DNA of 64,000 bases from an uncultured bacterium (GTDB taxonomy: Bacteria; Oederibacteriota; PGYV01; Palsa-1178): positions 69,626 to 133,625 of the forward strand of contig CALAOR010000076.1 of assembly GCA_937889595.1 (NCBI GenBank). The letters run 5' to 3'. Shown here piece by piece: positions 11,422 to 62,468 of this stretch (its first letter is position 1; each line of letters starts with the position of its first letter). The notes below the pieces were generated by a model, which was not told the origin of the DNA, did not search any database, and worked only from the letters and a program-made list of their open reading frames with translations. The position numbers and the translations under genes are program-made.

Positions 11422-11424
11422 CGT

Positions 11425-18792: not shown

Positions 18793-18800
18793 TACGCACC

Positions 18801-27262: not shown

Positions 27263-27360
27263 AAGCAAAATATACAGAGCGTGGAAAGTTTGGGAGCAGA
27301 AGGCCGGGAATTAATAACAACAAGAGTGCGCTCGGGGCGTCAGCTGCCTGAATAAACCCC

Positions 27361-44780: not shown

Positions 44781-44891
44781 TTCATAAGTAAAATTATATT
44801 ATTATACGATACAGCGGTAGGGGCGGACCTGTGTGTCCGCCCGCTGCGGGCTTTATGACTACTGCGAATGGTACATGGCCTTAATGATAGG

Positions 44892-44995
44892 TCGTGTCCG
44901 GCGCGGATGAAATTTTTCTATGGATTGTGCGCTTGTATTATAAGGGTTTTAGTGGCGCACAGGCCATAGAAAAATTTCATCCGCGCCGGACACGA
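44892..44995. repeat. 104-bp palindromic element: perfect 32-bp inverted repeat around a 40-nt loop containing GTATTATAAG
   Basis: 44892-44923 is the exact reverse complement of 44964-44995. A nested GTGCGC/GCGCAC stem lies in the loop. Confidence 0.85.
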
Positions 44996-45126
44996 TAAAG
45001 AATTTCATGGTTTTATAGGGTTTTCCGACAGTAAGATATAGGCTGTGAAAAAAAATTGGCGGTCCAAGCACCGTTCTTACGAAGTCGCGCAAGCTGGTTT
45101 GAAAACACTGGAAAAGAGGTTTTATT

Positions 45127-46107
45127 ATGGAATTTCAGCCATATCCATTGACGGTTAAGCCGATCTTAAAGGAAAAAGTGTGGGGCGGCAGGAACCTGTC
45201 CGCCTATGTCAGCATAAAAAGCAAAAAAACAGGCGAGGCGTGGATGCTTGCTGACCGGGATGAAAACAACTCGGTTATTACCTCGGGGTCATTAAAAGGA
45301 ATGACCATAGGCAAAGCCGTTGAAAAATACCCCGAGCAGATCATGGGGCCGGCCCTTATTAAAAAGTACGGTAAAAAATTCCCGCTGTTATTTAAGTACC
45401 TTGACACCAATGACAGGATATCAGTGCAGGTACACCCCGATGATTCATACGCCAGGCGCCGCGGTTTTCCCGCGGGCAAGACTGAAATGTGGTATGTGCT
45501 GGCCAATAGGCCGGGTGCAAAGATACTTGCCGGTTTTAAGGGCAGGCAAACAAGGAAAACTTTTGCCAGGGCCGTCAAGAACGGGACCCTTGCCGATAAA
45601 CTTAAAAGTTACCGCACCGCCAAAAACGACTGTTTTTTTATCCCGGCCGGCACGGTCCATGCCATAGGCAAAGGCAACGTGATATTTGAGATACAGCAGA
45701 ATTCGGATATAACCTACAGGATTTATGACTGGGGAAGATCCGACTTAAAAGGGGACCGCGGCCTTAATATTATTGACGCTATAAACTCGGTAAAGTTCGG
45801 TTCAAAAGGCGGAAAAGTCATATCAAAGGAGAAAATAATTCCCGGCAAAATACGCGTCCGGCAGCTGGCAAGGTGCGGATATTTTTACTGCGACGAGATA
45901 ATAATCGGGAAAAACACGGCATATTGGTATGATGAGAACAAGGCTTTGGTATTAACGGTAATTGAAGGGGATATCAGTATCGCGGCCGATAATGGAAAAA
46001 CTTACAGTTATGTCAAAGGCGACCTTGTTTTTTTTCCCTATAGCCTGACGGGACTGCTGATTTCCGCGGCAAAAAACAGTCGTTTAATCATCACGGAGGC
46101 AAAATAA
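45127..46107 (+). CDS. manA: mannose-6-phosphate isomerase, class I
   Basis: Type I PMI cupin motifs (QVHPDDSYA, GKTEMWYVL). Confidence 0.8.
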   Translation: MEFQPYPLTVKPILKEKVWGGRNLSAYVSIKSKKTGEAWMLADRDENNSVITSGSLKGMTIGKAVEKYPEQIMGPALIKKYGKKFPLLFKYLDTNDRISVQVHPDDSYARRRGFPAGKTEMWYVLANRPGAKILAGFKGRQTRKTFARAVKNGTLADKLKSYRTAKNDCFFIPAGTVHAIGKGNVIFEIQQNSDITYRIYDWGRSDLKGDRGLNIIDAINSVKFGSKGGKVISKEKIIPGKIRVRQLARCGYFYCDEIIIGKNTAYWYDENKALVLTVIEGDISIAADNGKTYSYVKGDLVFFPYSLTGLLISAAKNSRLIITEAK

Positions 46108-46245
46108 AGGTTAAAAGACAGGAAAATATCCATAACCCTCTCAAAAAAAGCAGAAGACTTTCTTGTGGAAAAAGGATATGATGAAGTGTATGGCACAAGG
46201 CCGTTAAAGCGGGCAATGCAAAAATATATAGAAAAGGATAAAATC
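46108..46245 (+). pseudogene. in-frame remnant of a Clp/Hsp100 AAA+ ATPase C-terminus (…LSKKAEDFLVEKGYDEVYGTRPLKRAMQKYIE)
   Basis: Matches the ClpB/ClpA C-terminal GYDPVYGARPLKRAIQ motif. It begins directly after the manA stop codon with no upstream body. Confidence 0.55.
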
Positions 46246-48933
46246 ATGATGAAAAGCAATAAATGGACGGTGGTACTGTTTACGCTGGCCTTAATAACCG
46301 TGATGAGGGTGGGCATAATGGCGAAGGATGACATTTTAAGGGAAAAACTTGACAACGGGCTGACTGTCATAATAAAGGAAAACCACGCGGCGCCCGTAGT
46401 TGCCGTGAATTTCTGGGTTAAAACCGGGGCTGCTTTTGAAAATGACGGCGAAAAAGGCCTGTCGCACTTTATTGAACACATGATGTTCAAAGGCACTGAA
46501 AAAAGGAAGGTCGGCGACATAGACAGGGAAATAAAATCACTGGGGGGCTATAATAACGCTTTTACTTCGTATGACGCCACGAATTATGTCTTAGTCCTTC
46601 CATCGGAACAGGTTGAAAAAGCGCTTGATATAGAGTACGACGCCCTGACGTCGTCGGTATTTGACGAGGCTGAGATGAACAAGGAGCGTGAGGTCATTAT
46701 AGCCGAACTTAACCGCGGGCTTGATAATCCCGATGCCTTCCTCTGGCAGAAGTTCATGAGCCTGGCTTTTGACAGGTATTATAAGGACCCCATCATAGGT
46801 TATGCGGGATCGCTTAAGGATTATACCCGGAACCAGCTGTATGATTACTATAAAAAATATTACACGGTTGACAACCTGATAATCGTGGTCAGCGGGGACG
46901 TCGATAAAAACAAGGTGCTGGGCAGTATTAAGAAAACCTTCGGGGCCTTAAAACCGGCTGAACCCAGGAGGCAGGCTGATATATCGCCCATACAGGGCCC
47001 GGAAAAACAGGAACTGCGTTATAAAACTTACAGCGGCCAGATCGAAGGCCGTTACCTTGCGGTCGGGTTTATGATACCTGACGCGCTCTCCGCCGATATC
47101 CCCAAACTGGAGATACTGGCAAAAGCGCTCGGCGGCTCGGAGAGTTCGCCTTTGTACAGGGTGATCAAGGAAGAGAAACAGCTTGTGGACGACATAGACT
47201 GCGACATATTTTCCGGAAAATTCGGCGGGCTTTTTGTTATAGCCGCGAATGTTCGCGAAGGCAAATACGCGGAAGTCATGCAGGAAATTTTTGTCCAGCT
47301 TGATAAGTTAAGGCTGGAAGGCATAAAGAACGAGGAAATAATGCGGGTAAAGGCCGATATAGCAAGGGAAGAGTCAAAGGATAACATGCAGGTGGAAAGC
47401 GCCGCAATTAATCTCGGCCATTATGAACTCCTGGGCGACTACAACCTGTATTATAAATACAATGACGCCGTAAAAAGGGTGCTGGACACGGATTTAAAGG
47501 AAGTCATGGCCCGGTATTTAAATCCCCAGTCCGCAAGCATAGTGCTCTATTACCCGGAGAAAAAAGAGGCTGAGTTTAAGAAATACAAGTCCGCGGATGA
47601 TATTAAGAAATACGTTAATTATACAAGCCCTGAAAAAGTATCGGAAGAGGGCAAAGTGACAAAGACCGTGCTGCCAAACGGGATCACGCTCATACATAAA
47701 AAGCTTACCAATGCCGGCATAGTGGACATAAAAGCCGAGTACCGCGGCGGCATCGTGTATGAAAGCGCGGACCAGGGTTATTACAAGGGCATTACCAACC
47801 TGATGCTGTCATCCATGATGAAGGGAACCAAGACAATGGATTACAGCGAGATAGCAAGGCGGCTGGATGATCTGGGCGCGGTGCTGGGCCGTGACATAAA
47901 ACGGGATGCTTTTGGATGGACGGCCGAGGTGGTGCCCGCAAACCTCGCGGAATTCATGGATATTTTTTCGGATATTAACATAAACCCTTCCTTTCCCGTG
48001 GAAGAGGTAAAAAAAGAAAAAGAGGATGTTTTAAACCAGATAAAACAGATAAAAGACAGCCCCGCCTCATACCTGAATAAGATCTTTAATGAACTTTTCT
48101 TTGAGTGGCACCCCTATGGGTATCCTATGATGGGTGAACCTGATACGATAAAAAGGATAACGGTGAACAAACTGAAAGACTGGCACGACAGGTATATGAC
48201 GGCTGATAACCTGATAATATCCGTGGTAGGCGATGTGGATGCGGACTATATAAAATCCCTGTTAAAAGAGAAGTTTGCGGGTTTAAAAAACGGCAAGGAA
48301 TCGCGGCCCAAACTGCCGGTGAAAATAACCACCGAAAAAAAGATGTTGAGGGAAGTCATCGACAAGAACCAGTCGCACATCATGATAGGTTTTCTCGGCC
48401 CCAAAACAAACAGCAGTGATTATTTCCCGATGCGGGTGCTGGACAACATATTAAGCGGCGGCATGTCCTCGAGGCTTTTCACGGAAATAAGGGAAAAGAG
48501 GAACCTGTGTTACACGGTTTATTCGACATTTGACAGGAACATAGAAAACGGCGCGTTCAGGATATATACGGCCACTTCCCCTGAAAATGAGAAAAAAGCT
48601 GTTGATGAGATATTTGACGTATTACGGGAACTGACGGACAAGGGAGTGACCGACGAGGAAGTTAAAAGCGCCAAAAGTTATATAAGCGGCATGTTCAAGG
48701 TAGGCCTCCAGGATTACATGGCCCAGGCCGATTCTTACCTGTCCTATGAGCTCTGGGGCATGGGTTACAAAAAGGTCGATGAGTTCCTTACTGAGATCAA
48801 CAAGGTGACAAAGGCGGATGTAAACGCCGCCGTTAAAAAGTTCATTAAACTCAATAACTACACGCAGGTCATAGTGGGGCCGGCGGAAAAGAAAGGAAAA
48901 AAAGATGATAAAAATCCAAAATCTGAGCAGTAA
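46246..48933 (+). CDS. secreted tandem M16 (pitrilysin/insulinase-family) zinc peptidase
   Basis: HFIEHMMFKG inverted zinc motif, with a second inactive half. The signal peptide begins at MMKSNKW. Confidence 0.85.
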   Translation: MMKSNKWTVVLFTLALITVMRVGIMAKDDILREKLDNGLTVIIKENHAAPVVAVNFWVKTGAAFENDGEKGLSHFIEHMMFKGTEKRKVGDIDREIKSLGGYNNAFTSYDATNYVLVLPSEQVEKALDIEYDALTSSVFDEAEMNKEREVIIAELNRGLDNPDAFLWQKFMSLAFDRYYKDPIIGYAGSLKDYTRNQLYDYYKKYYTVDNLIIVVSGDVDKNKVLGSIKKTFGALKPAEPRRQADISPIQGPEKQELRYKTYSGQIEGRYLAVGFMIPDALSADIPKLEILAKALGGSESSPLYRVIKEEKQLVDDIDCDIFSGKFGGLFVIAANVREGKYAEVMQEIFVQLDKLRLEGIKNEEIMRVKADIAREESKDNMQVESAAINLGHYELLGDYNLYYKYNDAVKRVLDTDLKEVMARYLNPQSASIVLYYPEKKEAEFKKYKSADDIKKYVNYTSPEKVSEEGKVTKTVLPNGITLIHKKLTNAGIVDIKAEYRGGIVYESADQGYYKGITNLMLSSMMKGTKTMDYSEIARRLDDLGAVLGRDIKRDAFGWTAEVVPANLAEFMDIFSDININPSFPVEEVKKEKEDVLNQIKQIKDSPASYLNKIFNELFFEWHPYGYPMMGEPDTIKRITVNKLKDWHDRYMTADNLIISVVGDVDADYIKSLLKEKFAGLKNGKESRPKLPVKITTEKKMLREVIDKNQSHIMIGFLGPKTNSSDYFPMRVLDNILSGGMSSRLFTEIREKRNLCYTVYSTFDRNIENGAFRIYTATSPENEKKAVDEIFDVLRELTDKGVTDEEVKSAKSYISGMFKVGLQDYMAQADSYLSYELWGMGYKKVDEFLTEINKVTKADVNAAVKKFIKLNNYTQVIVGPAEKKGKKDDKNPKSEQ

Positions 48934-49318
48934 AACGTTCTCTAAATTCGGGCTGGTGCTGGAACAGGCGGACAAAAAAAAGGTTTTCTCGGTCTTAACC
49001 GGGGACAAGACGGCTAAAGGCTGGAGGATAGGATACCTTATATTTCATCCCGCGCCCGTGGACTCCCTGGAGAGGCACCCTGGATCCATGGAAACTTTTG
49101 AACCGGTGTCTGGCGCCACTGTTATCCTTGTGGCGGAGCAGGGAAGCCCGGACAAGATAGAAGCGTTTTTGCTGGATAAGCCGGTATGCGTCGCAAAGAA
49201 CGTATGGCACGGCGTCAGGGTATTGTCTGAAAAAGCAGAGATCAAGATAACCGAAAATTACGAAGTGGAATCCGTCATCCATAAGCTGAAAAAACCCATA
49301 GACGCGGTTTTTGTTTAG
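48905..49318 (+). CDS. small cupin protein, ureidoglycolate-lyase-like
   Basis: LERHPGSMETFEPVSG resembles the AllA ERHP motif. Confidence 0.5.
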   Translation: MIKIQNLSSKTFSKFGLVLEQADKKKVFSVLTGDKTAKGWRIGYLIFHPAPVDSLERHPGSMETFEPVSGATVILVAEQGSPDKIEAFLLDKPVCVAKNVWHGVRVLSEKAEIKITENYEVESVIHKLKKPIDAVFV

Positions 49319-49344
49319 CGTTTCCGGGCGGAAACGGGAGGCAT

Positions 49345-50766
49345 ATGAATAAACAACTCAAAAAAATAACGGTCTATATAGTTGTTTTGGCTTTATTAAC
49401 CGTGGTATTCAGGGTTTTCAACCTGGATATTGCGGTGCAAAAATTATTTTTTGATTTTCCACGCAATGCCTGGAAATACGCGGATAATGCCTTTGTCATA
49501 TGGCTCTATAAATACGGGACATATCCGGCCATAATCCTGGCCGCGGCCGCGGTCGTGGTATTTACCATGGGATTTGTTTATGAGGGGATGAAAAAACACA
49601 GGAAAGCGGCGCTGCTTATCATATTGACCATGTTCATAGGTCCGGGGCTTGTGACCAACGTGATCCTGAAAAATTACGCCGGCAGGCCAAGGCCGAGGGA
49701 TGTGAAGGAATTCAACGGCGGGATGGATTTTAAGCAGCCGTTTGAGCCGGGGAACCCGGGCAGGGGCTTTTCTTTTCCCTGCGGACACTGCACCATGGGG
49801 TTCTTTTTTTATGCCGTTTATCTTATACTCAGGAAAAAAAATAAGCGTGCGTCATATGCCGTGCTGTCCGGTTCGGTCTTATACGGCACTGCCATGGGGA
49901 TAGGGCGCATGGCACAGGGCGGGCATTTTGCTTCGGACGTTTTTTGGGCGGCCGGCATAACTGTTTTAACGGCGGAGACACTCCATACTTTTGTGATCAA
50001 GACGGATGAGACTGGAAGCATACTCGATCATATTAAGGTCAAAAATAAGGCCCTTGCGTATATTGCCTCGCTTTTATTACTGGCTGTTACCGCGTTTGTG
50101 TTTTTGAACGCAACGCCTTTCAACAGGCACAGAAAATACGCGATCGGATATTACCCGGGCGCCGAAATAATCGGCAGCAGGGCCGACATCACTGTCGGGG
50201 ACCGTCCAAATAAGGACGGCTCAATTGAGTTTAAGGCCGCCGGATTCGCGCCGCCATGGTCCGACTATGAAGATTTCATCAATACGGACGGAACCCTAAT
50301 TTACATGGCGACCGCCCGCGGCGCATTTTCCGAATTAAATGCGGGCATTAATGTCGTTTTTGCGGCAGGAAGAGAGCGGTCAGTTACCATAACTGCAGGA
50401 GAGGGAAACATAGATTATTATTCCGACGCCCAGTGCGGCTCCATATACTTAAATTCAGGAAAAGGCAATATAGAGTTCAAGCCTTTGTATGCGCATGAAA
50501 TAAAAAATATTGTTATTAATGCCGCGAACGGCGATGTTATACTTAAACTGGCGAAAACCATGAGGTTTTTCGCGGACGCCAAGATTGACATTAAAGCGCC
50601 GGGTGGGTCCGTGCTGATACAAAACAGCAGTATTTACTTCCAGGATATGAATAAATCAGCCTCAAAACTTTCGGGTTCAAAGGAACTGCAGTTTAAAACT
50701 CTTGTCAAGGGCGGACCGCAGCTGAATGCGTCGGCTAAAACCATAAATATTGAAGCTGTCAAATAA
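49345..50766 (+). CDS. PAP2-family membrane phosphatase with C-terminal beta-rich (adhesin/DUF4097-like) domain
   Basis: KNYAGRPRP, PCGH and GRMAQGGHFASD correspond to PAP2 motifs I-III. Confidence 0.7.
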   Translation: MNKQLKKITVYIVVLALLTVVFRVFNLDIAVQKLFFDFPRNAWKYADNAFVIWLYKYGTYPAIILAAAAVVVFTMGFVYEGMKKHRKAALLIILTMFIGPGLVTNVILKNYAGRPRPRDVKEFNGGMDFKQPFEPGNPGRGFSFPCGHCTMGFFFYAVYLILRKKNKRASYAVLSGSVLYGTAMGIGRMAQGGHFASDVFWAAGITVLTAETLHTFVIKTDETGSILDHIKVKNKALAYIASLLLLAVTAFVFLNATPFNRHRKYAIGYYPGAEIIGSRADITVGDRPNKDGSIEFKAAGFAPPWSDYEDFINTDGTLIYMATARGAFSELNAGINVVFAAGRERSVTITAGEGNIDYYSDAQCGSIYLNSGKGNIEFKPLYAHEIKNIVINAANGDVILKLAKTMRFFADAKIDIKAPGGSVLIQNSSIYFQDMNKSASKLSGSKELQFKTLVKGGPQLNASAKTINIEAVK

Positions 50767-50806
50767 ACATGGAAAATGCCTTAAATATTTTTTACAGGAG
50801 GATTGC

Positions 50807-51802
50807 ATGAAAAAACATGTTCTATTCCTTATTGCTGCCGCATCACTGCTGTTGTCCTGCGCCACTGTAAAGCAACCCATCGACACACAATACTGGGAAT
50901 TTCATAAAATTGAGAAAATCATTCCTGAGGAACTTTACTCGTCTGACGAAGATGTAAAGGCAAAATCAGCCGCTGTGTTTGGCGGTTTGACTGACGAATC
51001 AAAAAGACAGGTAATGACATACCTTGCCTATACGCTGTCTGACGAAAAAGACCCCGTTGTACGGGCAAAAATATTCGCCGCTTTGACGGAATTTAACGCG
51101 GGCGCGTATGTGGTGGCGCCGCTTATAGAGTCAGCCAGGGCAAATAGTTCCGCCGTGATATTCAGGGAAGTCAAGGCTTTCACATCAAGGTTTAAGCCGT
51201 CCGAACTTGAACTGGCGCCGCTTGTAAAATTCCTGAAGGACCCCGACTGGAACGTAAAATTAACGGCCGCGAAAATAATAGGCTTGATGTCCCAAAAAGC
51301 CCGGACCGCCCTGCCTGAGATGTTTGACGCAATGCGCTCCGTCAATGACAATTCAGACAGATACGCCGAGATCTACAACGCGGCTTCCATGATAAACCCG
51401 AGGATCGCCATACTGCAGGTTATAGTCGACATGCACAGCAAGGATAAGAATATAAGCAGAAATTCCATAAATACGCTTTTTGAGCTTTATATGTTCTTAA
51501 ACAAGGACTCAAATACCGGGAGGGAGATTCTGCCGGCTTTGGTCAGGCTTATGTACAGCGAGGATGAAACCCTTTCAAAAACAAGCCATGAGATGATAGC
51601 GTCCATAGGCGATGAAGATTCTGTAAAAGCCGTGAAATCCTATATAGCCTTCAGCAAAATTGCCCTGAAAAGCATGGCAAATATGGCCGGCCAAAAACTG
51701 CAGGATAAGTTCAAACAGCAGGAAGATGATATTGTAGATGAGATCGCGGTGTATTATAAGATGATAGGCAGGGAAGACGCGTTAAACGGGGTAAAAAAGT
51801 AG
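50807..51802 (+). CDS. HEAT-repeat lipoprotein
   Basis: The ATG follows an AGGAGG ribosome-binding site, with lipobox LLSC and repeated DPxVRxxAxxAL HEAT units. Confidence 0.6.
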   Translation: MKKHVLFLIAAASLLLSCATVKQPIDTQYWEFHKIEKIIPEELYSSDEDVKAKSAAVFGGLTDESKRQVMTYLAYTLSDEKDPVVRAKIFAALTEFNAGAYVVAPLIESARANSSAVIFREVKAFTSRFKPSELELAPLVKFLKDPDWNVKLTAAKIIGLMSQKARTALPEMFDAMRSVNDNSDRYAEIYNAASMINPRIAILQVIVDMHSKDKNISRNSINTLFELYMFLNKDSNTGREILPALVRLMYSEDETLSKTSHEMIASIGDEDSVKAVKSYIAFSKIALKSMANMAGQKLQDKFKQQEDDIVDEIAVYYKMIGREDALNGVKK

Positions 51803-51803
51803 T

Positions 51804-51974
51804 ATGTCCGGAAAATTATTGATATTGCTGGCTGCTTTAAGCATGTTTTTTATCGGAGCCTGCGCGGCCGCTGAAAAACATAAGGAAAAGGACGGCCTGC
51901 ACGGCTATGGTTATCACGGGACGCTTAATAGCGGCGGACAATGCATGGACGGCAATATCGGCAACACAGCCTGA
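51804..51974 (+). CDS. unannotated 56-aa small lipoprotein
   Basis: FIGAC lipobox. The ORF abuts the upstream stop codon. Confidence 0.35.
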   Translation: MSGKLLILLAALSMFFIGACAAAEKHKEKDGLHGYGYHGTLNSGGQCMDGNIGNTA

Positions 51975-52168
51975 CGCAGCAGGCACATCTTCGGGAACTG
52001 CCGCACGGACGCCCAAGGCGGCGGACCCGGAAGGTAAAAATCTTTTTTTTCAGGAAGGAGGGATATAAGCCTTAAAAGCAGGGTAAAGAAGCGGGTATGC
52101 GCGAAGCGTTCCCGGACGGCATTTAATGTCCGGGGTAAATTAGAAATCAAAAAAAACCGAGGTGAAAA

Positions 52169-52453
52169 ATGAAAAAGACATCATTTGTGCTATTTATTGC
52201 GTTTTTACTGATACTGTCAGCAGCCTTATCCTATGCATCCCCGAGCCGCAATGTCAGCTCAAAAAGACACCCCAACATAGCCGCGGCACAGAAATTAGTC
52301 CGCCAGGCTTTTGAAAAAATAAAAATTGCCCAGGATAAGAATGAATTTGACATGGACGGACACGCGCAAAAAGCAAAGGAACTGCTCGATCAGGCCAATA
52401 ACGAATTAAAGCAGGCGGCTGAAGCGGCCAATGATCACCACGGCAAAAGATAA
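52169..52453 (+). CDS. small secreted helical protein, hypothetical
   Basis: Signal peptide and a ribosome-binding site (GAGGTGA). Confidence 0.45.
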   Translation: MKKTSFVLFIAFLLILSAALSYASPSRNVSSKRHPNIAAAQKLVRQAFEKIKIAQDKNEFDMDGHAQKAKELLDQANNELKQAAEAANDHHGKR

Positions 52454-52477
52454 ATATAAATAGCAGTCGGGACTTAA

Positions 52478-52520
52478 GTCCGGGCGGGATTACAGTGCAA
52501 TCCCGCCCGGTCTTTTTTAT
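52478..52520 (+). terminator. rho-independent terminator (12-bp GC stem)
   Basis: ccgggcgggatt-acagtgc-aatcccgcccgg followed by tctttttt. Confidence 0.85.
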
Positions 52521-52730
52521 AAAACAAAGCTCCATGCAGCGGCCGAATGTAATCCGGCCATCCGCCGGTTCTGCCGGATCACGGGCGGCGGAACGATATT
52601 CCGCCGCTACAAGTGCCGATATTATCCGCATAACAACCGGCCTTATTAAGCAAATTTAACTCTTGCCTGAAAGAACGGAAAGGGTTATTATTATAAATAG
52701 AAATAAGGTTAAAACCTGTCAGGAGCGCAT

Positions 52731-53780
52731 ATGAAAAAAATGATAATTTTGTTTATTGCTGTTTTAAGCGTTGTTTTATTTGCATCATGCACGGTTTATG
52801 TTGATAAACCGGATGTTTATACTTACTCCCAAAGCGCGCCTGATTTCTATGTTATGAGGATATATGACAACCGGTATGTCTTTTACAACGCTGACGAGCC
52901 CGTGGCAACCTGGATATTTAATGACGACGGGACCGTAATAAAGGAAGGCGTTGTCATAACCGGGCCTGTCAGGGTTTATTATGACTCCGGTGTCCTTTTT
53001 ACCGAAGCGTACTACAGGGGCGGCATACGCGAAGGCATATACAGGAATTATTATCCCGACGGAACACTGATGATGACGGGCAATTATAACGCGGGCTTCA
53101 GGAACGGCATGTGGACATCATACGTCTCAGGCGGCGGTGTGTACGGGTCTTTCGATTTCAGCGTGCGCGGCTCCCAGGCGCCGCAGGCATTCAACCCGCA
53201 GATGGACGACAGGGCGCGCGCAGGCGTGGATATGATGGCCGTGGAAGAACATTCCGCAGGCAGGCAGGTCATATCAAGGCAATTCAACAGGAACGACGCG
53301 GCCCCCAAGAATTTTGGAAAAACATTCGGCGCCCAGGCGCCGCAGTCTGGCAATAAAACAGCGCAGGGAATTCCCCCGCAAAATAAGAATAACGGCGTAC
53401 CGGTAAATCAGGGAAAAATCCAGCAGCCCCGGGCAAATACCGCGAATACGCCCGCAGTTAACACCCAGGCAGTTATAGCTCCATCCCAAAATGGCCAAAT
53501 GAAAGGGAGCAAAGCGGCAGGACAGAATAAAAAAGGAAAACCCGGAGCAATAAATCCTGCTAACATGCAAATGCCCGGGCAAAACGCGGTGAATGCGGCA
53601 GCGGCCAATAAACCGGCAAATAAACAGCCAGGCAAAAAGGGCGCGATGAAAAAGCAAGGCGCGCCAAAACAGGGAATTAAGAATAATCCGGGGCCAAAAC
53701 CGGTTACAGATGATAAAAAGGCAACCCCCGACATTAAAAAAAATCCGGATAAAGAAAACAGGAACCAGACCGCCCAATAA
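52731..53780 (+). CDS. lipoprotein with MORN/YwqK-like repeats and a Q/N/P/A/K-rich disordered C-terminus
   Basis: Lipobox FASC, followed by repeats YYDSGVLFTEAYYRGGIREGIYRNYYPDGTL. Confidence 0.55.
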   Translation: MKKMIILFIAVLSVVLFASCTVYVDKPDVYTYSQSAPDFYVMRIYDNRYVFYNADEPVATWIFNDDGTVIKEGVVITGPVRVYYDSGVLFTEAYYRGGIREGIYRNYYPDGTLMMTGNYNAGFRNGMWTSYVSGGGVYGSFDFSVRGSQAPQAFNPQMDDRARAGVDMMAVEEHSAGRQVISRQFNRNDAAPKNFGKTFGAQAPQSGNKTAQGIPPQNKNNGVPVNQGKIQQPRANTANTPAVNTQAVIAPSQNGQMKGSKAAGQNKKGKPGAINPANMQMPGQNAVNAAAANKPANKQPGKKGAMKKQGAPKQGIKNNPGPKPVTDDKKATPDIKKNPDKENRNQTAQ

Positions 53781-53813
53781 AATCCCGGGCAAAGTTTTGC
53801 TCCTGTCTTGCTA

Positions 53814-53850
53814 AAAATCACCGGGCCATGAAGGCCCGGTGATTTTGTGA
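53814..53850 (+). terminator. rho-independent terminator
   Basis: atcaccgggcc-atga-aggcccggtgat followed by TTTT. Confidence 0.8.
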
Positions 53851-53871
53851 AATAATGATTTGAACCCAACC

Positions 53872-53932
53872 TGCAAAAAAAACACTCTGCAAAAAAAACA
53901 CTCTTGACAAATCCCAGGATTTTTAATATCAT
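53872..53932 (+). promoter_or_regulatory. flp promoter region: 16-bp tandem direct repeat (TGCAAAAAAAACACTC x2) abutting TTGACA, 17-nt spacer, TATCAT
   Basis: Read directly from the sequence. It precedes a ~155-nt structured 5' UTR. Confidence 0.55.
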
Positions 53933-54088
53933 ACGTCCGTAAAATATAGAGGGCAATTACGGGCTAATCATTTATTCCGGCAGCATGTTATTTTTATGCG
54001 TATTTTTGCATAATTAGCCGTTTTTTTATCCGCATGTTCATTTCATGCGGGCGGCGCCCGGAAACTTAAATAAAACAGGCGGGTACTT

Positions 54089-54253
54089 ATGAAAAAACTG
54101 TCAGGCAGCCGCAGGGGCCAGGCGCTTACCGAATATGTACTCATCCTCTGTCTTGTTGCCATAACCTGTATTGCGGGCATAAGGATATTTTCAAGAGTTA
54201 TCTGCGGATATTACTCGAATATAACCGCAGTCTATACTGTTCCAATACCTTAA
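54089..54253 (+). CDS. flp: Flp/Fap-family type IVb pilin (54 aa), unannotated
   Basis: The product is MKKLSGSRRGQALTEYVLILCLVAI.... The G/xxxxEY prepilin processing motif is followed by a hydrophobic helix. Confidence 0.8.
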   Translation: MKKLSGSRRGQALTEYVLILCLVAITCIAGIRIFSRVICGYYSNITAVYTVPIP

Positions 54254-54266
54254 AAGGAGGGGTTAC

Positions 54267-54437
54267 ATGAAAAAGTTGTTGAAGGGAAAGAAAGGGCAGG
54301 GCATGACCGAGTACATACTCATCATAGCGCTGATCGCCATCCTTGTTTTAGGCGCTGTAAAAATGTTCGGAGGCAAGGTAAAGGCGGGTTTTAACAAGGC
54401 GTCGGATAAAGTGGGAGAAGTAAATGACGGCATGTAG
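54267..54437 (+). CDS. flp: Flp-family type IVb pilin, second paralog (56 aa), unannotated
   Basis: The product is MKKLLKGKKGQGMTEYILIIALIAI.... A GGAGGGG ribosome-binding site precedes it. Confidence 0.8.
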   Translation: MKKLLKGKKGQGMTEYILIIALIAILVLGAVKMFGGKVKAGFNKASDKVGEVNDGM

Positions 54438-54537
54438 GGCCATATAAAAGAGATACCTTTCCCCGCGGAGCGGCCTGTCCCCTTATACACACCCATAACA
54501 CGGCCGCTCCGCATCCATTTAAAAAAAAGGCGGCAAT

Positions 54538-55089
54538 GTGAGAAAATTAAGCTCGCAAAAAGGGCAGAGCGCGGCGGAGTTTGCGGTAATACTGCCGGTT
54601 TTTATCATTACATCGCTCGGGCTGATACAGCTCGGGCTTATCTACATAAATGCAATGATGCTCAAATACACGGCATACATGACCGCGCGCGTGGCATCGG
54701 TATATGCGGAAGGGGAAATAAGGAATAATACCGCACAAAAGGCCCAGATTATAATGCGGATAATTCAGGCAACAGCGGACAAGTATGACAGTAACTTGTT
54801 TTCCAATGCCCTGGACGGGCTATTGGATACGGCCAAAGACGCTGCGGCTTCTTATATTCAGGGAGATGAACTAACTATTGAAAAGGAGGAATTTGAAAAG
54901 GCAAAAGGGGACTACATAAAGGTCACCGTCACCTATAATATGCCGCTGAAAATCCCTTTTGTTAATAAAATATTCGGGATGTTCCAGAATAAAAATGATT
55001 TGGATATATTAAACGCGAGGACAGCCGCGGCATATATGGGGCTGCCGTATTACACGCTGAGATCATCGTCGATAATGAGGGTGCAATGA
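54538..55089 (+). CDS. tadE: TadE-like pseudopilin
   Basis: GQSAAEFAVILPVFIITSLGLIQLG is the TadE N-terminal motif. Confidence 0.75.
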   Translation: MRKLSSQKGQSAAEFAVILPVFIITSLGLIQLGLIYINAMMLKYTAYMTARVASVYAEGEIRNNTAQKAQIIMRIIQATADKYDSNLFSNALDGLLDTAKDAAASYIQGDELTIEKEEFEKAKGDYIKVTVTYNMPLKIPFVNKIFGMFQNKNDLDILNARTAAAYMGLPYYTLRSSSIMRVQ

Positions 55090-56201
55090 GAAGGCTGATA
55101 AAAGGTAAAAAGGGGCAGGTGCTGGTTATATCAATAGCGGTAATTTTCATAATTTTCATTTTTGTCATTGCTGCGGTTGAAATAGGGAACCTGATGTATG
55201 AAAAAACCCATATTCAGAACATAGCGGATTCCGGCGCCATGGAAGGCGGGATGTGGTACGCGCGCGGCATGAACATACTCTCTCTGTCAAATAAGGTGCT
55301 TGCGATAACAGGCGTCGCGGGTTTAATAGCGGCCTTAACAGGGGTTGGAGAAGCGGGAATCGATGCTATTAAGTTTGTGCAGAAGGCGCAGGATTTGATA
55401 GCGGGAACAGGGGACATGGAAAAAAGCGGGATAAAACCCATGCCGTTATTATGCGCCGCCGCAGTTGTTTTGAATGGCTCCGATAACAAGGTCTTTTCAC
55501 TGCCGCTATGCAACCTGGCGGATTTTGACCGGGGCAAATGGCTGCCTTCTTTTAATGTAAAAAGACGGTATGTAAGCGACATTGCGGACTCACAAAACGA
55601 AAGCAACGATGAAAATGGAAACAGCAGCGACAGCAATAATGATATATACTATTATACGAACGGAAAGACCGGTGAAAAAGTGTACGTGGATAAAAACAGC
55701 GTGCAATATAATCCCAATATTAAAAATAGGGCCGGCTGGAAAGACCAGATAATGACAAAAAATGACCCCATACACGGGACAAAGTTCCTAAAAAGGGAAC
55801 CGGGGGATGAAAAAGGCTTTGTCCCCCTCGACATAGTTGAAAGCTCAAGGGAACATTCCATGCTTGTGGTTTCTATAAAAGGCGGCGACCGGTTAAATCC
55901 TGTTACAGGCGCGAAGTTCTTTAAAAATAAAAACGGGGAACAGATTAAACCGGCTTTTTTGGCGGGTTTTTCTTTTGTGCGCATATCCGGGGGAAAACTT
56001 GGAATATTTGAACTGGACGGGGCAAATTACGAGCCAAAACTGGAACACATAGAATTCCCAAAGATCGGAGATACACAGGGTCTTACGGATTCCATAGGCC
56101 GGGCCGCGGAACAGGCGCAAAGCAGCGGGAATATCGGCAAAATGGGGGAATATTTGAACAGCTCGATTGACATACTGAACAGCGGAATATTGCTGCATTG
56201 A
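55086..56201 (+). CDS. tadG: TadG-like pilus assembly protein
   Basis: An N-terminal pseudopilin-like helix (GQVLVISIAVIFIIFIFVIAAVEIG) plus a large extracellular domain. Confidence 0.6.
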   Translation: MRRLIKGKKGQVLVISIAVIFIIFIFVIAAVEIGNLMYEKTHIQNIADSGAMEGGMWYARGMNILSLSNKVLAITGVAGLIAALTGVGEAGIDAIKFVQKAQDLIAGTGDMEKSGIKPMPLLCAAAVVLNGSDNKVFSLPLCNLADFDRGKWLPSFNVKRRYVSDIADSQNESNDENGNSSDSNNDIYYYTNGKTGEKVYVDKNSVQYNPNIKNRAGWKDQIMTKNDPIHGTKFLKREPGDEKGFVPLDIVESSREHSMLVVSIKGGDRLNPVTGAKFFKNKNGEQIKPAFLAGFSFVRISGGKLGIFELDGANYEPKLEHIEFPKIGDTQGLTDSIGRAAEQAQSSGNIGKMGEYLNSSIDILNSGILLH

Positions 56202-56208
56202 GGATGAA

Positions 56209-56712
56209 ATGAAAATAATAAAAGATAACCGGGCGCAGGCAATGACGGAATTTGTGATAATGTTGCCCATATTCATCCTTCTGCTGGCCGGGTTATGCCA
56301 GATGTCCATCCTCATGATAAGGCGCATAGAGCTTGCCATGGTGGAGCGCGAGGTCATGCGGTATCTCACCGCGGACGCTGAAGAAAAAGACAGGGACAAA
56401 ACTGAGGAGTTTATAAAGGAATACGCGGGCAAGATAGGCTTGGATCGGGAGAAAATAACTTACGAGCCCCATGCCAGGCTGGGCGGCACGGATAAAGGAA
56501 TGGACAAGATGGGCCTGCTTGAGAATGTGTCGGGCATAACCATTGATCTTTCATATGACGAAAAACTGACAAGGCTGTTCGCGGTCATAATGAATAAAGA
56601 TACATTAACCTTAAAAACAACGTTGTCTACCGCGGCAGGCTCATGCCTGAAGTTTAAGATAGCGGAAAAAGCCAAGGAAGTATGGGGCAACGTAACAAAT
56701 GGCGGCATATAA
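56209..56712 (+). CDS. TadE/TadF-like pseudopilin
   Basis: AQAMTEFVIMLPIFILLLAGL motif. Confidence 0.7.
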   Translation: MKIIKDNRAQAMTEFVIMLPIFILLLAGLCQMSILMIRRIELAMVEREVMRYLTADAEEKDRDKTEEFIKEYAGKIGLDREKITYEPHARLGGTDKGMDKMGLLENVSGITIDLSYDEKLTRLFAVIMNKDTLTLKTTLSTAAGSCLKFKIAEKAKEVWGNVTNGGI

Positions 56713-57503
56713 TGGGTTCAATAAATATTCACAGTAGAGCGGCTGCTCGCTGCCGCTCACCAAAGGCTCTATTATTCGCGGCGGTCTTTGTTATTTTGTC
56801 CGTGTTCTCAAACGGCGCCGTATTTGATCTAAAAAGTGTTTCATCAGGTTTATTCGCGCCTGACATGACAGCCGCAAAGCAGGGAATATTATCAGCCAGG
56901 ATAAACGGGGAACCTGTAAAGATAGAGTCATATACAACGGGAAAAAGCGCCGATGAGATCATGCGGTATTATGCCGATGACGCGCAGAAACACGGTTATG
57001 AACTTATAAATGGAAAAGAATTGGCGCGTCTGGGCGCCTTCCTGATAAACATGGGCATGGCTGAAAGCCCGGACAACTGGTACTACCTGTGTTACAAACT
57101 GCCCGGCGGAGATATGTCCATAATAACGGCCGGTGAGTTCGGCCGTAATACTAGAATTGTAACCGCAAAAGCAGGCAAAACAAACGGGGTCCATAGTAAG
57201 CCGGGCTTTGATGACCGTATAAGGCATTATCCCGGCCTTGAAAAAGTCCTGAGCATTGAAATTTTATCGGGGAATAACGTTATTGGTTTCGCTAATTTTT
57301 ACAAAAATGAGGGCGCGGACATGTATTCCATGAAAGCATATTACGAGGATTATCTGCCGAAAAACAAGTGGACAATACAAAGGCAGTATACGGCCGCGGA
57401 TACGGACATGTTCCTGATAGAAAAGAAAGGCAGGGGATATATGCTGAATATTTATCCATCGGACAATAATGAAAAATGGGTAATGGTGATGGGACAGCGA
57501 TAG
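56711..57503 (+). CDS. hypothetical secreted protein in the tad cluster
   Basis: Signal peptide. No homology was recognised. Confidence 0.45.
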
Positions 57504-57694
57504 TTTGGCGGGAATTTAATTCCGGCAAATCCATTGACTTCAGCCGGTGGAGGGGCGTGGTTCTTGTAGGTCACCAACAGGACTCCCTCTCCCTTTATGG
57601 GAGAGGGTCAGGGAGAGGGTGAAGTAGCGGCAGGCCAGCCCGCCGGGTCACCCGCACGCAGGTTTTTGATAACGTATATATAAACGGAGGCACT

Positions 57695-58504
57695 ATGAAC
57701 AAACTGTTTGAAAAGTTTAAAACCATGAAAATGGAAAACAGGCTCTTATTGCTGGCGCTTGTATGCGGGCTTCTGGCTGCAATTACGGGTTATGCTTTTA
57801 TCACCCTAAAAGAAGCGGCTCTGATGAAATCCATGGAACCTGTTAAGGTCCTCGTGGCGGCGAAGTACATAACGCCGAAAACCCAGATCAATGAGGATAT
57901 GGTCAGGGAGGCGCAGATACCGGCAAAATTTGTCACCTCCGCGCATGTAAAGGATTTTAAAAAATTAAAGGGCCGTATGACCATGGTACCCTTCATAGAA
58001 GGCGAGCCCATACTTTTGAACAAGGTAAGCGAAAAAGCCGGCGAATTATCAGCCGCGGTTCCCACGGGCCTGCGGGCCGTTGCCGTCAGCGTGGATGAGG
58101 AATCAAGCGTTGGTTACATGATCAAACCGGGCGACAATGTCGACGCGTTTTTGACATACGCGCAGGGCGAGGGAAAATTGGTGCATAATGTCACGGCAAT
58201 CTTCCTGCAATCGGCCCAGGTTGTGGCCGTAGGCACGGAATTCGCGGGCAGCGACGCGGCGAAAAAATACAATACCATAACGCTCGCAATAACCCCCGAG
58301 GAAGCGGAACTTCTGGTCTTTGCCGGCTCCCGCGGCAGGATATCTTTTGCCTTAAGGCCGATGGGCGAGACGATAAAAGAAAAAATAAAAGTAACGGCAT
58401 TTGACGACCTGTTAAGGCAGATAAAAACAAATGAAAAAGCAGGTGAAGATGCCGTAAGGACACCGGATAAACCCGCGGATAGCGTGGAGAAAAGGGCGGA
58501 ATAA
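57695..58504 (+). CDS. cpaB: Flp pilus assembly protein CpaB/RcpC
   Basis: N-terminal transmembrane anchor plus SAF and RcpC beta-domains. Confidence 0.7.
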   Translation: MNKLFEKFKTMKMENRLLLLALVCGLLAAITGYAFITLKEAALMKSMEPVKVLVAAKYITPKTQINEDMVREAQIPAKFVTSAHVKDFKKLKGRMTMVPFIEGEPILLNKVSEKAGELSAAVPTGLRAVAVSVDEESSVGYMIKPGDNVDAFLTYAQGEGKLVHNVTAIFLQSAQVVAVGTEFAGSDAAKKYNTITLAITPEEAELLVFAGSRGRISFALRPMGETIKEKIKVTAFDDLLRQIKTNEKAGEDAVRTPDKPADSVEKRAE

Positions 58505-58643
58505 GGATAAAATTAATATTAAGTTTTAATTCACGCCTAAATCCTACGAAAATGCTTGACATTTGTTTTTTTTTGTATAAGATAATAAAATATTTTGTTA
58601 TAGTGTGTTGTTCATTTAATTAAATAAAACCAAAGGCTAAAAT

Positions 58644-59615
58644 ATGCTTGAAGACAAGGCGATACAGAGCAGGGTAAATGCCATAAACAGGCAGATCGCC
58701 CTGATACATGACACTAAAAGCAAAAGTATCCGGAGTATTTTTAAAAATATACCGCTGACCTCAGGCAAGAGGTTGCGCGGGCTGCTTGTTCTTCTTACTG
58801 CCGAGGCCTGCGGGGCTCGGGTCAATACGGGGCTCTTAAATATTGCGGCTTCCCTGGAAATACTTCACCACGCCACATTGATACATGACGATATTGTGGA
58901 CGGCGCCGGGCATAGGCGCGGAAATACGGCTCTTAATAAGAAGATCGGCGAGACGCTGTCGGTTTTGACCGGGGACTATCTTTTTTCGGGCGCTATGGAG
59001 GCCATGCTGAAGAACAGGGACTTTGGACTGCTCGGTATGTTTGCCGGGGCCGTCAAGGATGTTTGCGAAGGCGAGATAGAAGAAGTCTTTTATAAACATA
59101 ACGCGGGGATTTCATCGCATGAATGCCTGGAAATAATAAGGAAGAAAACAGCCTCGCTTATCAAGGCAAGCGTTAAATCAGGGGCCCATGCGGCCGGATG
59201 CCCGGGCAGCGACTTAAAACACCTTGAAGTTTACGGCGAGCACTTAGGCATGGCTTTTCAGATAAAAGATGATTTACTTGACATTACGTCAAAAACAAGT
59301 AAAATAGGAAAATCCGCGGGAACGGACATCCGCGAAGGAAAAGCCACGCTGCCTCTCATACTTGCCATGAAATGCGCGCCAAAGAATGAATGCAGCCGGA
59401 TTAAGAAACTCTTTGAGAAAAACACGGACGGGAAAAACACGAAAAAGATAATTGATTTTATTTTCAAATACGACGGCACAGAGCTTGCCGGGCTTATGGC
59501 CCTGAGTTATTCAGGCGATGCGAAAGCCGCGCTGGATAAAACGAAACTTAAGAACGCGGTTGTAAAGGAAGTTTTAAGCGACCTGGCGGATTATGTCATA
59601 GAGCGGGAGTATTAA
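58644..59615 (+). CDS. polyprenyl diphosphate synthase (IspB-like trans-prenyltransferase)
   Basis: First aspartate-rich motif LIHDDIVD and second FQIKDDLLD. Confidence 0.8.
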   Translation: MLEDKAIQSRVNAINRQIALIHDTKSKSIRSIFKNIPLTSGKRLRGLLVLLTAEACGARVNTGLLNIAASLEILHHATLIHDDIVDGAGHRRGNTALNKKIGETLSVLTGDYLFSGAMEAMLKNRDFGLLGMFAGAVKDVCEGEIEEVFYKHNAGISSHECLEIIRKKTASLIKASVKSGAHAAGCPGSDLKHLEVYGEHLGMAFQIKDDLLDITSKTSKIGKSAGTDIREGKATLPLILAMKCAPKNECSRIKKLFEKNTDGKNTKKIIDFIFKYDGTELAGLMALSYSGDAKAALDKTKLKNAVVKEVLSDLADYVIEREY

Positions 59616-59650
59616 AGCCCGCTTGTAATGAAAATACACCTGGAGGAACG

Positions 59651-60004
59651 ATGGCTTACGGGACATTTTTAGTATTTGTGGGATTTGCCTTTGTGTTTGT
59701 CATAGGCGGTGTGGTGGTTAACTACCTCCTCATGCCTTATAAACCAAGCAAGGGGAAATATACCACATACGAATGCGGCATAGACCCTATCGGCAGTGCG
59801 CAGATACGCTACTCCATGAGGTTTTATGTTTTTGCGCTTATGTACGTGGTATTTGCGGTTGAGGCCGTGTTCCTGCTTCCCTGGGCGGTTGTATATAAAA
59901 GAATGTCAGGGCTTATGCCTTTGATCGAGGTTCTTATATTCATATTTATACTCGTTTTAGGGCTGGCTTTCGCGTGGAAGAAAGGGGAGCTCAAATGGGA
60001 TTAA
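59651..60004 (+). CDS. nuoA: NADH-quinone oxidoreductase subunit A
   Basis: Three transmembrane helices and the YECGIDP motif. Confidence 0.9.
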
Positions 60005-60513
60005 TGAACGGTGTTGATGAAGCCCTCATAAAAAAAATACCCGGCCTTCCTCTGGTCATGACGACCGCGGAGTGGGCGATCAATGCGGGGCGCTCCAATT
60101 CGATCTGGACCCTGACTTTCGGCCTGCGCTGCTGCGCCATGGAAATGATGGCAACGGGCGCGCCAAAATACGACTGGGCCAGGTTCGGGCTTGAAGTGCC
60201 TTCCGCCTCGCCGAGAAGGGCAGACATGATGATAGTAGCAGGTACTGTGACGAAAAAAATGGAGCCGGTCATAATAAGGTTATATGAGCAGATGGCGGAA
60301 CCAAAGTATGTCATAGCCATGGGCGCCTGCGCCATATCTGGCGGGCCTTTCATATATGATTCGTATTCGGTCATAAAGGGCGCTGACAAGATAATCCCAG
60401 TGGACATATACATCCCGGGCTGCCCGCCGCGCCCCGAAGCATTGCTTGACGGCATTATAAAACTCCAGAAAAAGATCATGAAACAGAAGTTTAGGATTGT
60501 AAAATCGGCATAA
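59995..60513 (+). CDS. nuoB: NADH-quinone oxidoreductase subunit B
   Basis: CCAMEMM...GxCxxxGG...PGCPP N2-cluster motifs. The start overlaps the nuoA stop. Confidence 0.9.
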
Positions 60514-60537
60514 GATAACCTGAGCCGATAAAGCCGG

Positions 60538-60581
60538 CATAAGATAATCTAACACAGCACAAAACGCTGTGTAAGATTATC
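60538..60581 (+). other. intra-operon stem-loop (17-bp stem with 1 mismatch) between nuoB and nuoC
   Basis: agataatctaacacagc-acaaaac-gctgtgtaagattatct, immediately followed by an AAGGAG ribosome-binding site. Confidence 0.6.
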
Positions 60582-60593
60582 TAAGGAGTATAA

Positions 60594-61052
60594 ATGAATT
60601 TTACGGAAATTTTGGATAAATTAAAAGCAGGGCACGAAGTGCTTGAATCGAAAGAAGATCTGGGAGTGCTTAATGCCTGGGTTGCGCCAAAGAAGATCAG
60701 GGATGTTATCGGGTTCCTGAAAGACGATATGCATTTTAATCAGCTCAGTTTTGTTACGGCCGTTGACCTGCCGATAACCAATAATATCGAAGTTGTTTAC
60801 AGGCTGTTCTCATATGAAACAAAAGATAACGTGGTAATAAAAGTTAAGCTTGACAGGGTAAAACCCGAGATAGAGACCATAACCGGCATATTTGCAACTG
60901 CCAACTGGCACGAACGGGAAACCGCCGAGATGTTCGGCATGAAGTTCATAAACCATCCGGACCCGAACAAGCTGCTCCTGCCGGACGGTATTGAAGCGCC
61001 GCTGCGCAAGGATTTTACATGCGCGGACATGGTGCCGCTGCCAAAGGCATAA
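60594..61052 (+). CDS. nuoC: NADH-quinone oxidoreductase subunit C (30 kDa)
   Basis: NuoC family, with the ERE...FG motif present. Confidence 0.85.
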   Translation: MNFTEILDKLKAGHEVLESKEDLGVLNAWVAPKKIRDVIGFLKDDMHFNQLSFVTAVDLPITNNIEVVYRLFSYETKDNVVIKVKLDRVKPEIETITGIFATANWHERETAEMFGMKFINHPDPNKLLLPDGIEAPLRKDFTCADMVPLPKA

Positions 61053-61137
61053 TTTTTTGAACTATTGATTGCGTAGGGGCGCCTCGCTGGGGCGCCCGCC
61101 GTGGTTGTAGAATCAAAATAAGGCCGCAGTAGTTTTA

Positions 61138-61237
61138 TACTTAGGCAGCATGTTTGCTTTTTTTCGAATCGGCCGGCCGGTATTATAAGTAGATGGGTGC
61201 CGCCGGGTCGAAAAAAAGCAAACACGCTGCCTAAGTA
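61138..61237. repeat. second 100-bp palindromic element: 30-bp inverted repeat (1 mismatch) around a 40-nt loop containing GTATTATAAG
   Basis: Arms at 61138-61167 and 61208-61237. Architecture and loop core match the element at 44892. Confidence 0.8.
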
Positions 61238-61340
61238 TTGTGGTTGTCAGGGTTTGAGGCTGAATTAAACGGCAACCGGTATGAAAGCAAAAAAAGTTGT
61301 GAAAGATCAAAAGACAAACAAAAAGGAAAAAACGGAAAAC

Positions 61341-62468
61341 ATGACGATCAAAGCGCCATTTGAACTCGAAAAGCTGTCAAACGACGAATACATACTGAAC
61401 ATGGGGCCGCAGCATCCGTCCACGCACGGGGTTTTGCGCATCATTTTAAAACTTGACGGCGAAGTGGTAAAAGACCTTTACGCCGACGTCGGATACATAC
61501 ACTCAAGCGTTGAGAAGATGTGCGAGAACAAAAAATATGAAATGATCATGCCGTATACGGACAGGCTGGATTATTTGTCCGCCGTCAATTATAACTGGGC
61601 ATATGCACTGGCCGTTGAAAAGCTCATGGGTATTACCATACCGGAACGCGCTGAATACATCCGCGTCATGCTGGCCGAATTAAACAGGATCATGAGCCAT
61701 CTGCTCTGGTACTCGGCTTACGGCATGGATGTCGGCGCTTTGACCCCCATTATGTACGCTTTCCGCGAGAGGGAAGAGGTAATAGATATGATAGAGGGCA
61801 TGACAGGCGGAAGGCTGACGCATAACGCTTTCAGGTTCGGCGGGTTTAAGAACGACCTTCAAAAGGGTTTTATGGATTCTCTTAAGAAATTTATCGGGCA
61901 CTTTAATGACAAAATAGACGAATATGAAGCCTTACTAATTAACAATGTAATCCTGACAGCCAGGACAAAAGGCGTGGGAATTTTAAGCAAAGAAACGGCC
62001 ATGAGCTACGGCGTCACGGGCCCGTCGCTCAGGGGGTCTGACTGCGCAATTGACCTGAGAAAAACAGCCCCTTACTCCATATATGACAAGTTTGACTTCA
62101 AAGTATGCACGGGCAAGAACGGCGACACATGGGACCGGTTAAAGGTCAGGATGGACGAGATGAGGGAAAGCACAAAGATATTAAAGCAGGCCATGGAAGG
62201 CATACCCGCGGGCGACATCATGGCAAAAGTGCCCAAGATAATCAAACCCGCGCCCGGCGAAGTTTACACAAAAGTGGAAAGCGCCAGGGGGGAGTTCGGG
62301 GTATATATAATAAGCGACGGAACCGACAAGCCGTACAGGATAAAGTTCAGGAGCCCGTCGTTCTCGAATTTGAGCGTGCTTAAGGAAATAGCAATAGGCT
62401 CGAAGATCGCTGACGTGGTAGCGATCATGGGAAGCCTGGACCTGGTAATACCGGAGATAGACAGGTAG
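61341..62468 (+). CDS. nuoD: NADH-quinone oxidoreductase subunit D (49 kDa)
   Basis: NMGPQHPSTHGVLR motif. An alternative upstream start at 61281 would add a lysine-rich 20-aa extension. Confidence 0.9.
   Translation: MTIKAPFELEKLSNDEYILNMGPQHPSTHGVLRIILKLDGEVVKDLYADVGYIHSSVEKMCENKKYEMIMPYTDRLDYLSAVNYNWAYALAVEKLMGITIPERAEYIRVMLAELNRIMSHLLWYSAYGMDVGALTPIMYAFREREEVIDMIEGMTGGRLTHNAFRFGGFKNDLQKGFMDSLKKFIGHFNDKIDEYEALLINNVILTARTKGVGILSKETAMSYGVTGPSLRGSDCAIDLRKTAPYSIYDKFDFKVCTGKNGDTWDRLKVRMDEMRESTKILKQAMEGIPAGDIMAKVPKIIKPAPGEVYTKVESARGEFGVYIISDGTDKPYRIKFRSPSFSNLSVLKEIAIGSKIADVVAIMGSLDLVIPEIDR

Follow-up and report, generated by a model that had tools for sequence, protein, structure and literature searches.

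Two long hairpins, E1 and E2, lie between genes in a 64,000-nucleotide stretch of contig CALAOR010000076.1 (the window, at its full length), and both are likely to be copies of a new family of miniature transposable elements with inverted repeats (MITEs) that has spread through the intergenic regions of this uncultured soil bacterium and its relatives. An earlier prediction, made from the sequence of the window alone (the original prediction), had set the hairpins apart from classic MITE copies and proposed a class defined by structure. That premise fails on three counts: E1 is 97% identical over 167–175 bp to copies at other loci in contigs L028 and L021, the hairpin belongs to a larger element with terminal repeats and 5-bp duplications, and relatives have empty sites. 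The presence of near-identical copies at separate loci indicates that some insertions are young. Judged from sequence comparison, the mobility of the family is well supported.

Two hairpins of shared design and their relatives

E1 (44892–44995, + strand) lies between SpoIID and PMI_typeI_cat (manA), and E2 (61137–61238, + strand) between Complex1_30kDa (nuoC) and Complex1_49kDa (nuoD); these Pfam assignments confirm the gene context first proposed. An inverted-repeat search returned arms of 41 nt for E1 (44892–44932 and 44955–44995, 95% complementarity) and 37 nt for E2 (61137–61173 and 61202–61238, 92% complementarity). The repeats had been called perfect, which is true of the outer 32 nt of the E1 arms and not of the outer 31 nt in E2, where there is one A/C mismatch. 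The shared geometry is real: these outer arms enclose exactly 40 nt in E1 and likewise 40 nt in E2, and the 10-mer GTATTATAAG starts 43 nt past the first base in both. Within the interior of E1 is a nested stem (TGTGCGC/GCGCACA). The E1 core thus consists of its perfect outer arms, a T.G + A.G internal loop, a 7–8-bp GC inner stem and the apical loop TTGTATTATAAGGGTTTTAGTG. At matching positions, both E1 and E2 have a T5-7C run, a GC inner stem and the same 2x2 internal loop. Among the copies E2 is divergent, with its T-run, AU/GG internal loop and loop motif as in the others.

In the window there are 4 exact occurrences of the 10-mer, where 0.14 would be expected. Its remaining two occurrences, at 46776 and 51751, fall within coding sequence, where they read Tyr-Tyr-Lys, and are thus unrelated to the hairpins. 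On either strand, E1 and E2 are predicted to fold far more stably than shuffled sequence (z-scores −9 to −17). An Rfam search of the window at the gathering threshold passed a tRNA alone and no family for E1 or E2; at an E-value threshold, the two regions gave just generic miRNA-precursor hairpin matches, far sub-threshold.

Further copies, which the original prediction had proposed to look for, do exist. A metagenome pattern scan using the arm termini and the T-run recovered 13 true copies and 1 chance match, most of them from assembly OCZT01, and additional copies came from the loci of relatives, including E1-like hairpins between Tad and TadE in L010 (1844–1947) and two in L013. The total is 20 hairpin cores from the window and related metagenomic contigs, all intergenic and with folding energies of −57 to −83 kcal/mol. 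Contigs L001 and L002, from the same strain, are identical to the window and hence uninformative. The arms end in TCGTG...CACGA, with arm starts of TCGCG in L036 and ATACT in E2.

All 20 cores were recovered by a covariance model (R1) built from 16 copies with E2 left out. E1, a member of subfamily A, scored 133.8 bits and E2 55.8 bits on the + strand, compared with 41.9 on the − strand; the 14-bit lead of the + strand of E2 comes from its matching loop motif and asymmetric internal loop. Besides E1 and E2, the model matched no hairpin in the window.

Terminal repeats, target duplications and empty sites

A flank-inclusive alignment placed the ~104-nt hairpin at the core of a 170–230-bp non-coding element in most copies. 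A typical copy measures ~170 bp and E1 228 bp, all below 500 bp and far below transposase-coding size. The terminal inverted repeat has the consensus GATACTGYCGGAAAA and reaches ~30 nt, and GATACTGYCGGAAAA / TTTTCCGRCAGTATC are present at both ends of most copies. From left to right, an element comprises the left terminal repeat (T)GATACTGYCGGAAAAGCC, then TTAATGATAGG, the core, TAAAGAATTTCATGGTTTTATAGGG and the right terminal repeat TTTTCCGRCAGTATC(A). Optional inserts are a GTAGGGGC...GCCC hairpin (on the left side in E1 and the right side in L029 and L032), tandem ATGTACC...GGTACAT units, and a 36-nt hairpin within the loop of the second L028 copy.

The full E1 element spans 44808–45035 (+ strand, ~228 bp). 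It begins with GATACAGCGG, a remnant to which the left terminal repeat is reduced, and continues through a GC-rich, REP-like hairpin (GTAGGGGCGG...CCGCCC; 44817–44846, + strand), a CTGCGAATGGTACATGG module, subterminal CTTAATGATAGG, the core and TAAAGAATTTCATGGTTTTATAGGG to the right repeat TTTTCCGACAGTAAG (45021–45035), which matches the consensus at 13 of 15 positions. Homology between the window and L036 ends at ATTATTATA, one base ahead of GATACAGCGG at 44808.

Perfect 5-bp duplications flank six elements: L027 and L022 (both ATTTA), L028 (AAGAT), L030 (ATATA), L010 (TAAAT) and an element in the window at 27365–27529 (CAAAT). A further two, L024 and the window element at 18623–19074, match at 4 of 5 positions. 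The duplicated 5-mers are AT-rich. For E1 the duplication is ambiguous (TATAC/TATAG) and needs a 1-nt indel.

Three sites could be compared between the window and its relatives, and at all three (nuoC–nuoD, Tad–TadE and SpoIID–manA) short spacers without a copy were found. The NuoC homologues used are 82%, 77% and 74% identical and come from related uncultured soil or peat metagenome bacteria. The nuoC–nuoD spacer is 28 bp in L015, the 74% relative, and 111–123 bp in L013 and L010, compared with ~288 bp in the window, measured to the conserved ATGACG start. Since none of these three spacers contains a hairpin, E2 is best seen as a lineage-specific insertion; it occupies approximately 61053–61290 (+ strand) of the spacer, with a GC hairpin at 61073–61102 and a possible decayed right end, GGGTTTGAGGCTGAAT, at 61250–61265, although its ends are insecure. 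The reverse case is found at the Tad–TadE junction. In the window the two genes are 7 bp apart (56201–56209, + strand), whereas in L010 a 187-bp family copy stands there, flanked by duplicated TAAAT. Finally, the SpoIID–manA spacer, which holds E1 in the window, is 55 bp in L037. MITE insertion accounts for the oddly long spacers in the nuo operon and upstream of manA. In L036 (9725–10001), the SpoIID–manA spacer is occupied by a different element with the inverted repeat GTCATTGCGAGGAG...CTCCTCGCAATGAC, so that another repeat family is present at the same intergenic site.

Two same-strain assemblies terminate inside E1, as is typical of a repeat. N-gaps, collapses or contig ends also coincide with the hairpin in L011 (1782–1906), L012 (3833–3910) and at the starts of L034 and L035; metagenome assemblies of this lineage thus fragment or gap at these hairpins. 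In addition, L029 (211–897) and L032 (1–688) are 97% identical from the hairpin onward, with unrelated left sides, which points to a chimaeric assembly or to a rearrangement that broke at the element.

The proposed mechanism is that a transposase encoded elsewhere recognises the terminal repeats and inserts the element into AT-rich intergenic 5-mers (TAAAT-like), duplicating 5 bp. On this reading the central hairpin is cargo or an accessory part, not the end that the transposase recognises.

The terminal repeats are not confined to elements with this core. A composite element at 18623–19074 (+ strand), with a complete unit at 18623–18788 and flanking 5-mers TAAAT and CAAAT, carries the family terminal repeats around other internal hairpins. 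A second, at 27365–27529 (− strand, opposite to 18623–18788), has an alternative core; its perfect duplication lies at 27360–27364 and 27530–27534, and it is 90% identical to 18623–18789. Because GATACTGYCGGAAAA repeats also bound these multi-hairpin cores, they define a group wider than the hairpin family. For this uncultured soil and peat lineage, the analysis adds an undescribed MITE family together with the wider group that shares its terminal repeats.

Paired arms, a conserved asymmetry and orientation

The original prediction had described the arm sequences as unrelated. This is roughly true of E1 and E2, which are 50% identical over the outer 30 nt, and wrong for E1 in the family at large, since many other copies have arms that match its own at almost every base. 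Within each copy, the two arms are 83–100% complementary, while left-arm identity between copies is 40–87%. Subfamilies A to D, L010, L013a and E2 have arms that differ in blocks, and the same T-A to C-G switch is found inside two otherwise near-identical subfamilies (L020 in A, L026 in B). E2 arms (TTAGGCAGCATGTTTGC type) are 97% self-complementary yet only 40–57% identical to those of other copies, so E2 either belongs to a subfamily of which no other copy was sampled or inserted long ago and had its stem kept paired in place.

Covariation, which the original prediction had proposed to look for, is present: in 17 of 40 pairs, RNAalifold identified double compensatory changes. Both arms carry such changes and structure is conserved above arm sequence, which fits the concerted evolution of arms that the prediction had listed among its options. 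Two processes, singly or together, may keep the arms complementary: quasi-palindrome correction, in which one arm serves as template for the other as the DNA replicates, and selection for a fold in the single strand. Uncompensated mismatches do build up in single copies (for example, L029 compared with L032). At alignment columns 16–17 and 111–112 (44902–44903 and 44984–44985 in E1), the CG within the GCGC of each arm varies among CG, CA, TG and TA, with compensation in some copies only; this is the pattern that would be expected from 5-methylcytosine deamination at a GCGC methylation site.

Other features are constant. The T-run/A-run and the T.G + A.G 2x2 internal loop under the GC inner stem are found in 20 of 20 copies, and a TATTATA-type loop motif in all except L013a, whose loop is deleted. 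ATTATA/TATAAT is kept in 18 of the 20 loops. The minus-strand TATAAT is thus conserved in most copies as a putative promoter element, for which we found no consistent −35 partner: there is none for E1 and one promoter-like match on the minus strand of E2. Copies are oriented like their neighbouring genes in 19 of 20 cases (18 of 19, plus L036). In the window (1–64000), all sizeable genes examined are on the + strand and the GC skew stays positive from end to end (0.08–0.16), so that gene orientation is inseparable from replication orientation.

A purely passive palindrome would not be expected to show these asymmetric conserved features, which suggest a role for one of the strands, in the form either of RNA or of single-stranded DNA. 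The internal loop, the TATTATA motif and the co-orientation together argue that one strand of the core is functionally important. Most plausibly, the core would act within read-through transcripts as an RNA hairpin, which RNase III might cleave as it does in Correia elements. We think it unlikely, but worth stating, that selection on structure preserves the core as a functional module specific to one strand, either needed for spread via a single-stranded intermediate or acting as a portable processing site or antisense-promoter module on host transcripts. If true, this would make for a MITE class defined by fold, not sequence. The family is also a clean natural case of concerted palindrome-arm evolution beside a preserved asymmetric mismatch, and could help to tell selection on structure apart from quasi-palindrome correction as a mutational process.

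Alternative explanations and known repeat systems

Several observations weigh against a MITE family as the explanation. A simple double-strand cut-and-paste element would not be expected to show so strong an orientation bias or to keep an asymmetric internal loop so strictly. No clean duplication was found in L029, L032, L033 or L020. In ~490 kb of compared loci there was neither an autonomous insertion sequence with these terminal repeats nor a transposase; self-comparison and end pairing of these loci gave no repeat longer than ~700 bp and no terminal-repeat pairs 1–3 kb apart. The relatives compared (L-numbered loci) are all metagenome assemblies, some of them broken or N-gapped at this very hairpin. 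E2 has no recognisable terminal repeats or duplication and no securely defined ends, and its flanks align with those of E1 no better than shuffles do. As its flanks show no significant similarity and it has no terminal repeats, the membership of E2 rests on the core.

We weighed three further explanations. According to the first, the hairpins are host-serving structured RNAs or cis-regulatory hairpins (an RNase III site, mRNA stabiliser or attenuator) whose function is selected and whose mobility is secondary or absent. This would explain the compensatory changes, the T.G + A.G internal loop and loop motif kept even in E2, the co-orientation with flanking genes, and the placement of copies within operons (nuoC–nuoD, and Tad–TadE in L010). 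However, no copy is shared by two species at an orthologous position, relatives being empty at all three sites that could be compared, and the terminal repeats and 5-bp duplications show insertion. Moreover, the flanking genes are functionally unrelated, Rfam offers only generic hairpins far under threshold, and the uncompensated mismatches of L029 and L032 sit poorly with a selected fold. We regard this explanation as improbable.

The second, which we hold to be highly improbable, is a REPIN-like element mobilised in single-stranded form by a transposase that reads the hairpin itself, either a RAYT or an enzyme of the IS200/IS605-type HUH kind. HUH single-strand transposition makes no target duplication and does not require terminal inverted repeats, whereas six of the elements here have perfect 5-bp duplications outside clear terminal repeats. 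A long, imperfect hairpin with a conserved asymmetric mismatch and a strong orientation bias would suit such an enzyme, and GTAG-type REP-like GC hairpins do lie in and around the elements. Yet the hairpin ends, TCGTG...CACGA, are without GTAG, the GTAG hairpins are separate modules, and there is free variation in the arm sequence, the part that such an enzyme would have to read. A RAYT gene was not encountered, although no systematic search for one was made. REPIN-like doublets are present elsewhere in the window, as inverted pairs of GTAGAGA-type GC hairpins at 18853–18943 and 24438–24531; the latter pair is flanked by 14-bp direct repeats, TTTTTGATTTTGTA (~24426–24439 and 24542–24555).

The third, a mini-inverton in which a recombinase flips the 22–40-nt loop and so switches the TATAAT −10 element between strands, had been raised by the original prediction and is hardly credible: inverted repeats do surround a short AT-rich segment, most loops retain ATTATA/TATAAT and E2 has its one promoter-like match, but the loop faces the same way with respect to the asymmetric flanks in 16 of 16 flank-aligned copies and in three same-strain assemblies, the genes called downstream of E1 or up to 10 kb from E2 include no recombinase Pfam family, the segment is far shorter than known invertible promoters, and E1 is without a −35 partner.

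A MITE family remains our preferred explanation. Set against criteria for prokaryotic MITEs taken from PMC10969869, these elements show small size, terminal repeats, duplications, presence or absence at multiple loci, AT-rich targets and predicted stable stem-loops; the exception is a parent insertion sequence, none of which was found in the ~490 kb compared. They are an ordinary kind of genomic parasite and reveal no new kind of genetic system. They bear a close likeness to the Correia repeat-enclosed elements, the MITEs of Neisseria, which are also non-coding, palindromic, ~100–200 bp, multi-copy and found both in intergenic regions and in operons, with transcripts that fold into long hairpins (predicted for the family described here) and internal −10-like sequences. 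RNase III cleavage and promoter activity are documented for Correia elements (PMC10969869), whereas here both roles are putative. In contrast to Correia elements, which duplicate TA and form their hairpin from the terminal repeats, the present family duplicates 5 bp (TAAAT-like) and carries its hairpin internally, as a core separate from the terminal repeats; the two kinds of element share no sequence similarity, and the present one lives in an unrelated uncultured lineage.

REPINs and other REP or BIME repeats resemble the family in having long hairpins made of two inverted halves, sequence subfamilies, mosaics of small GC-hairpin modules and extragenic clustering. They differ in that REPINs are without terminal inverted repeats or target duplication and begin with a conserved GTAG read by RAYT, whereas the core here ends in TCGTG/CACGA and lies inside an element that has terminal repeats at its ends and a duplication outside them. 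ERIC or IRU sequences, the 127-bp imperfect palindromes of enterobacteria, share the size (~100–130 bp), the imperfect palindrome and, as would be expected here, transcription with neighbouring genes; orientation of ERIC relative to transcription is reported to affect mRNA fate (PMC10969869). Unlike ERIC, whose sequence is conserved across genera and whose mobility is poorly evidenced, the present family has lineage-specific insertions, clear duplications and variable arms.

Other leads were set aside. The exact 9-mer GTAGGGGCG, which starts the GC hairpin, occurs at only two sites in the window (44817 and 61073), each ~100 nt upstream of the loop 10-mer. As a composite family signature, the GTAGGGGCG hairpin plus GTATTATAAG gave 7 matches in a genome-contig collection that does not include the window's genome; these fell in unrelated phyla (Oscillospiraceae, cyanobacteria, Chloroflexota and others), none had the long hairpin, and each pairs the 10-mer by chance with a GTAG-type GC hairpin that is very widespread. 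GTAGGGGCG-N-CGCCC hairpins were found in Oscillospiraceae, Ruminococcus, Nostoc, Calothrix, Chloroflexia and Anaerolineae (L003–L009), and this looks like a very widespread REP-type motif across phyla. When viral contigs were scanned with the arm-terminus pattern, the 2 matches were GC-rich chance palindromes. A tiny open reading frame (ORF) from a conserved ATG in the left flank is inconsistent between copies, E2 having ATA. Integron attC sites do not fit, as the arm ends carry no GTTRRRY-type core sites and the surroundings are not those of a cassette. Nor is the hairpin an intrinsic terminator: no U-run directly follows the long stem on either strand, and just weak 3–6-bp sub-hairpins precede the internal T-run.

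Two observations concern neighbouring sequence. The predicted NuoD ORF starts at 61281 (395 aa), while its homologues are 375 aa long and their conserved AAAGGAAAAACATGACG start region aligns at ~61341 (window 61281–61341); the true start is probably the later ATG. In the tRNA-Val gene at 11330–11406 (region 11312–11447), 17 extra leader and trailer bases extend the acceptor stem into a 25-nt inverted repeat, and a partial copy of the 5′ end of this tRNA (GCGCGTAGCTCAGT) lies at ~11427.

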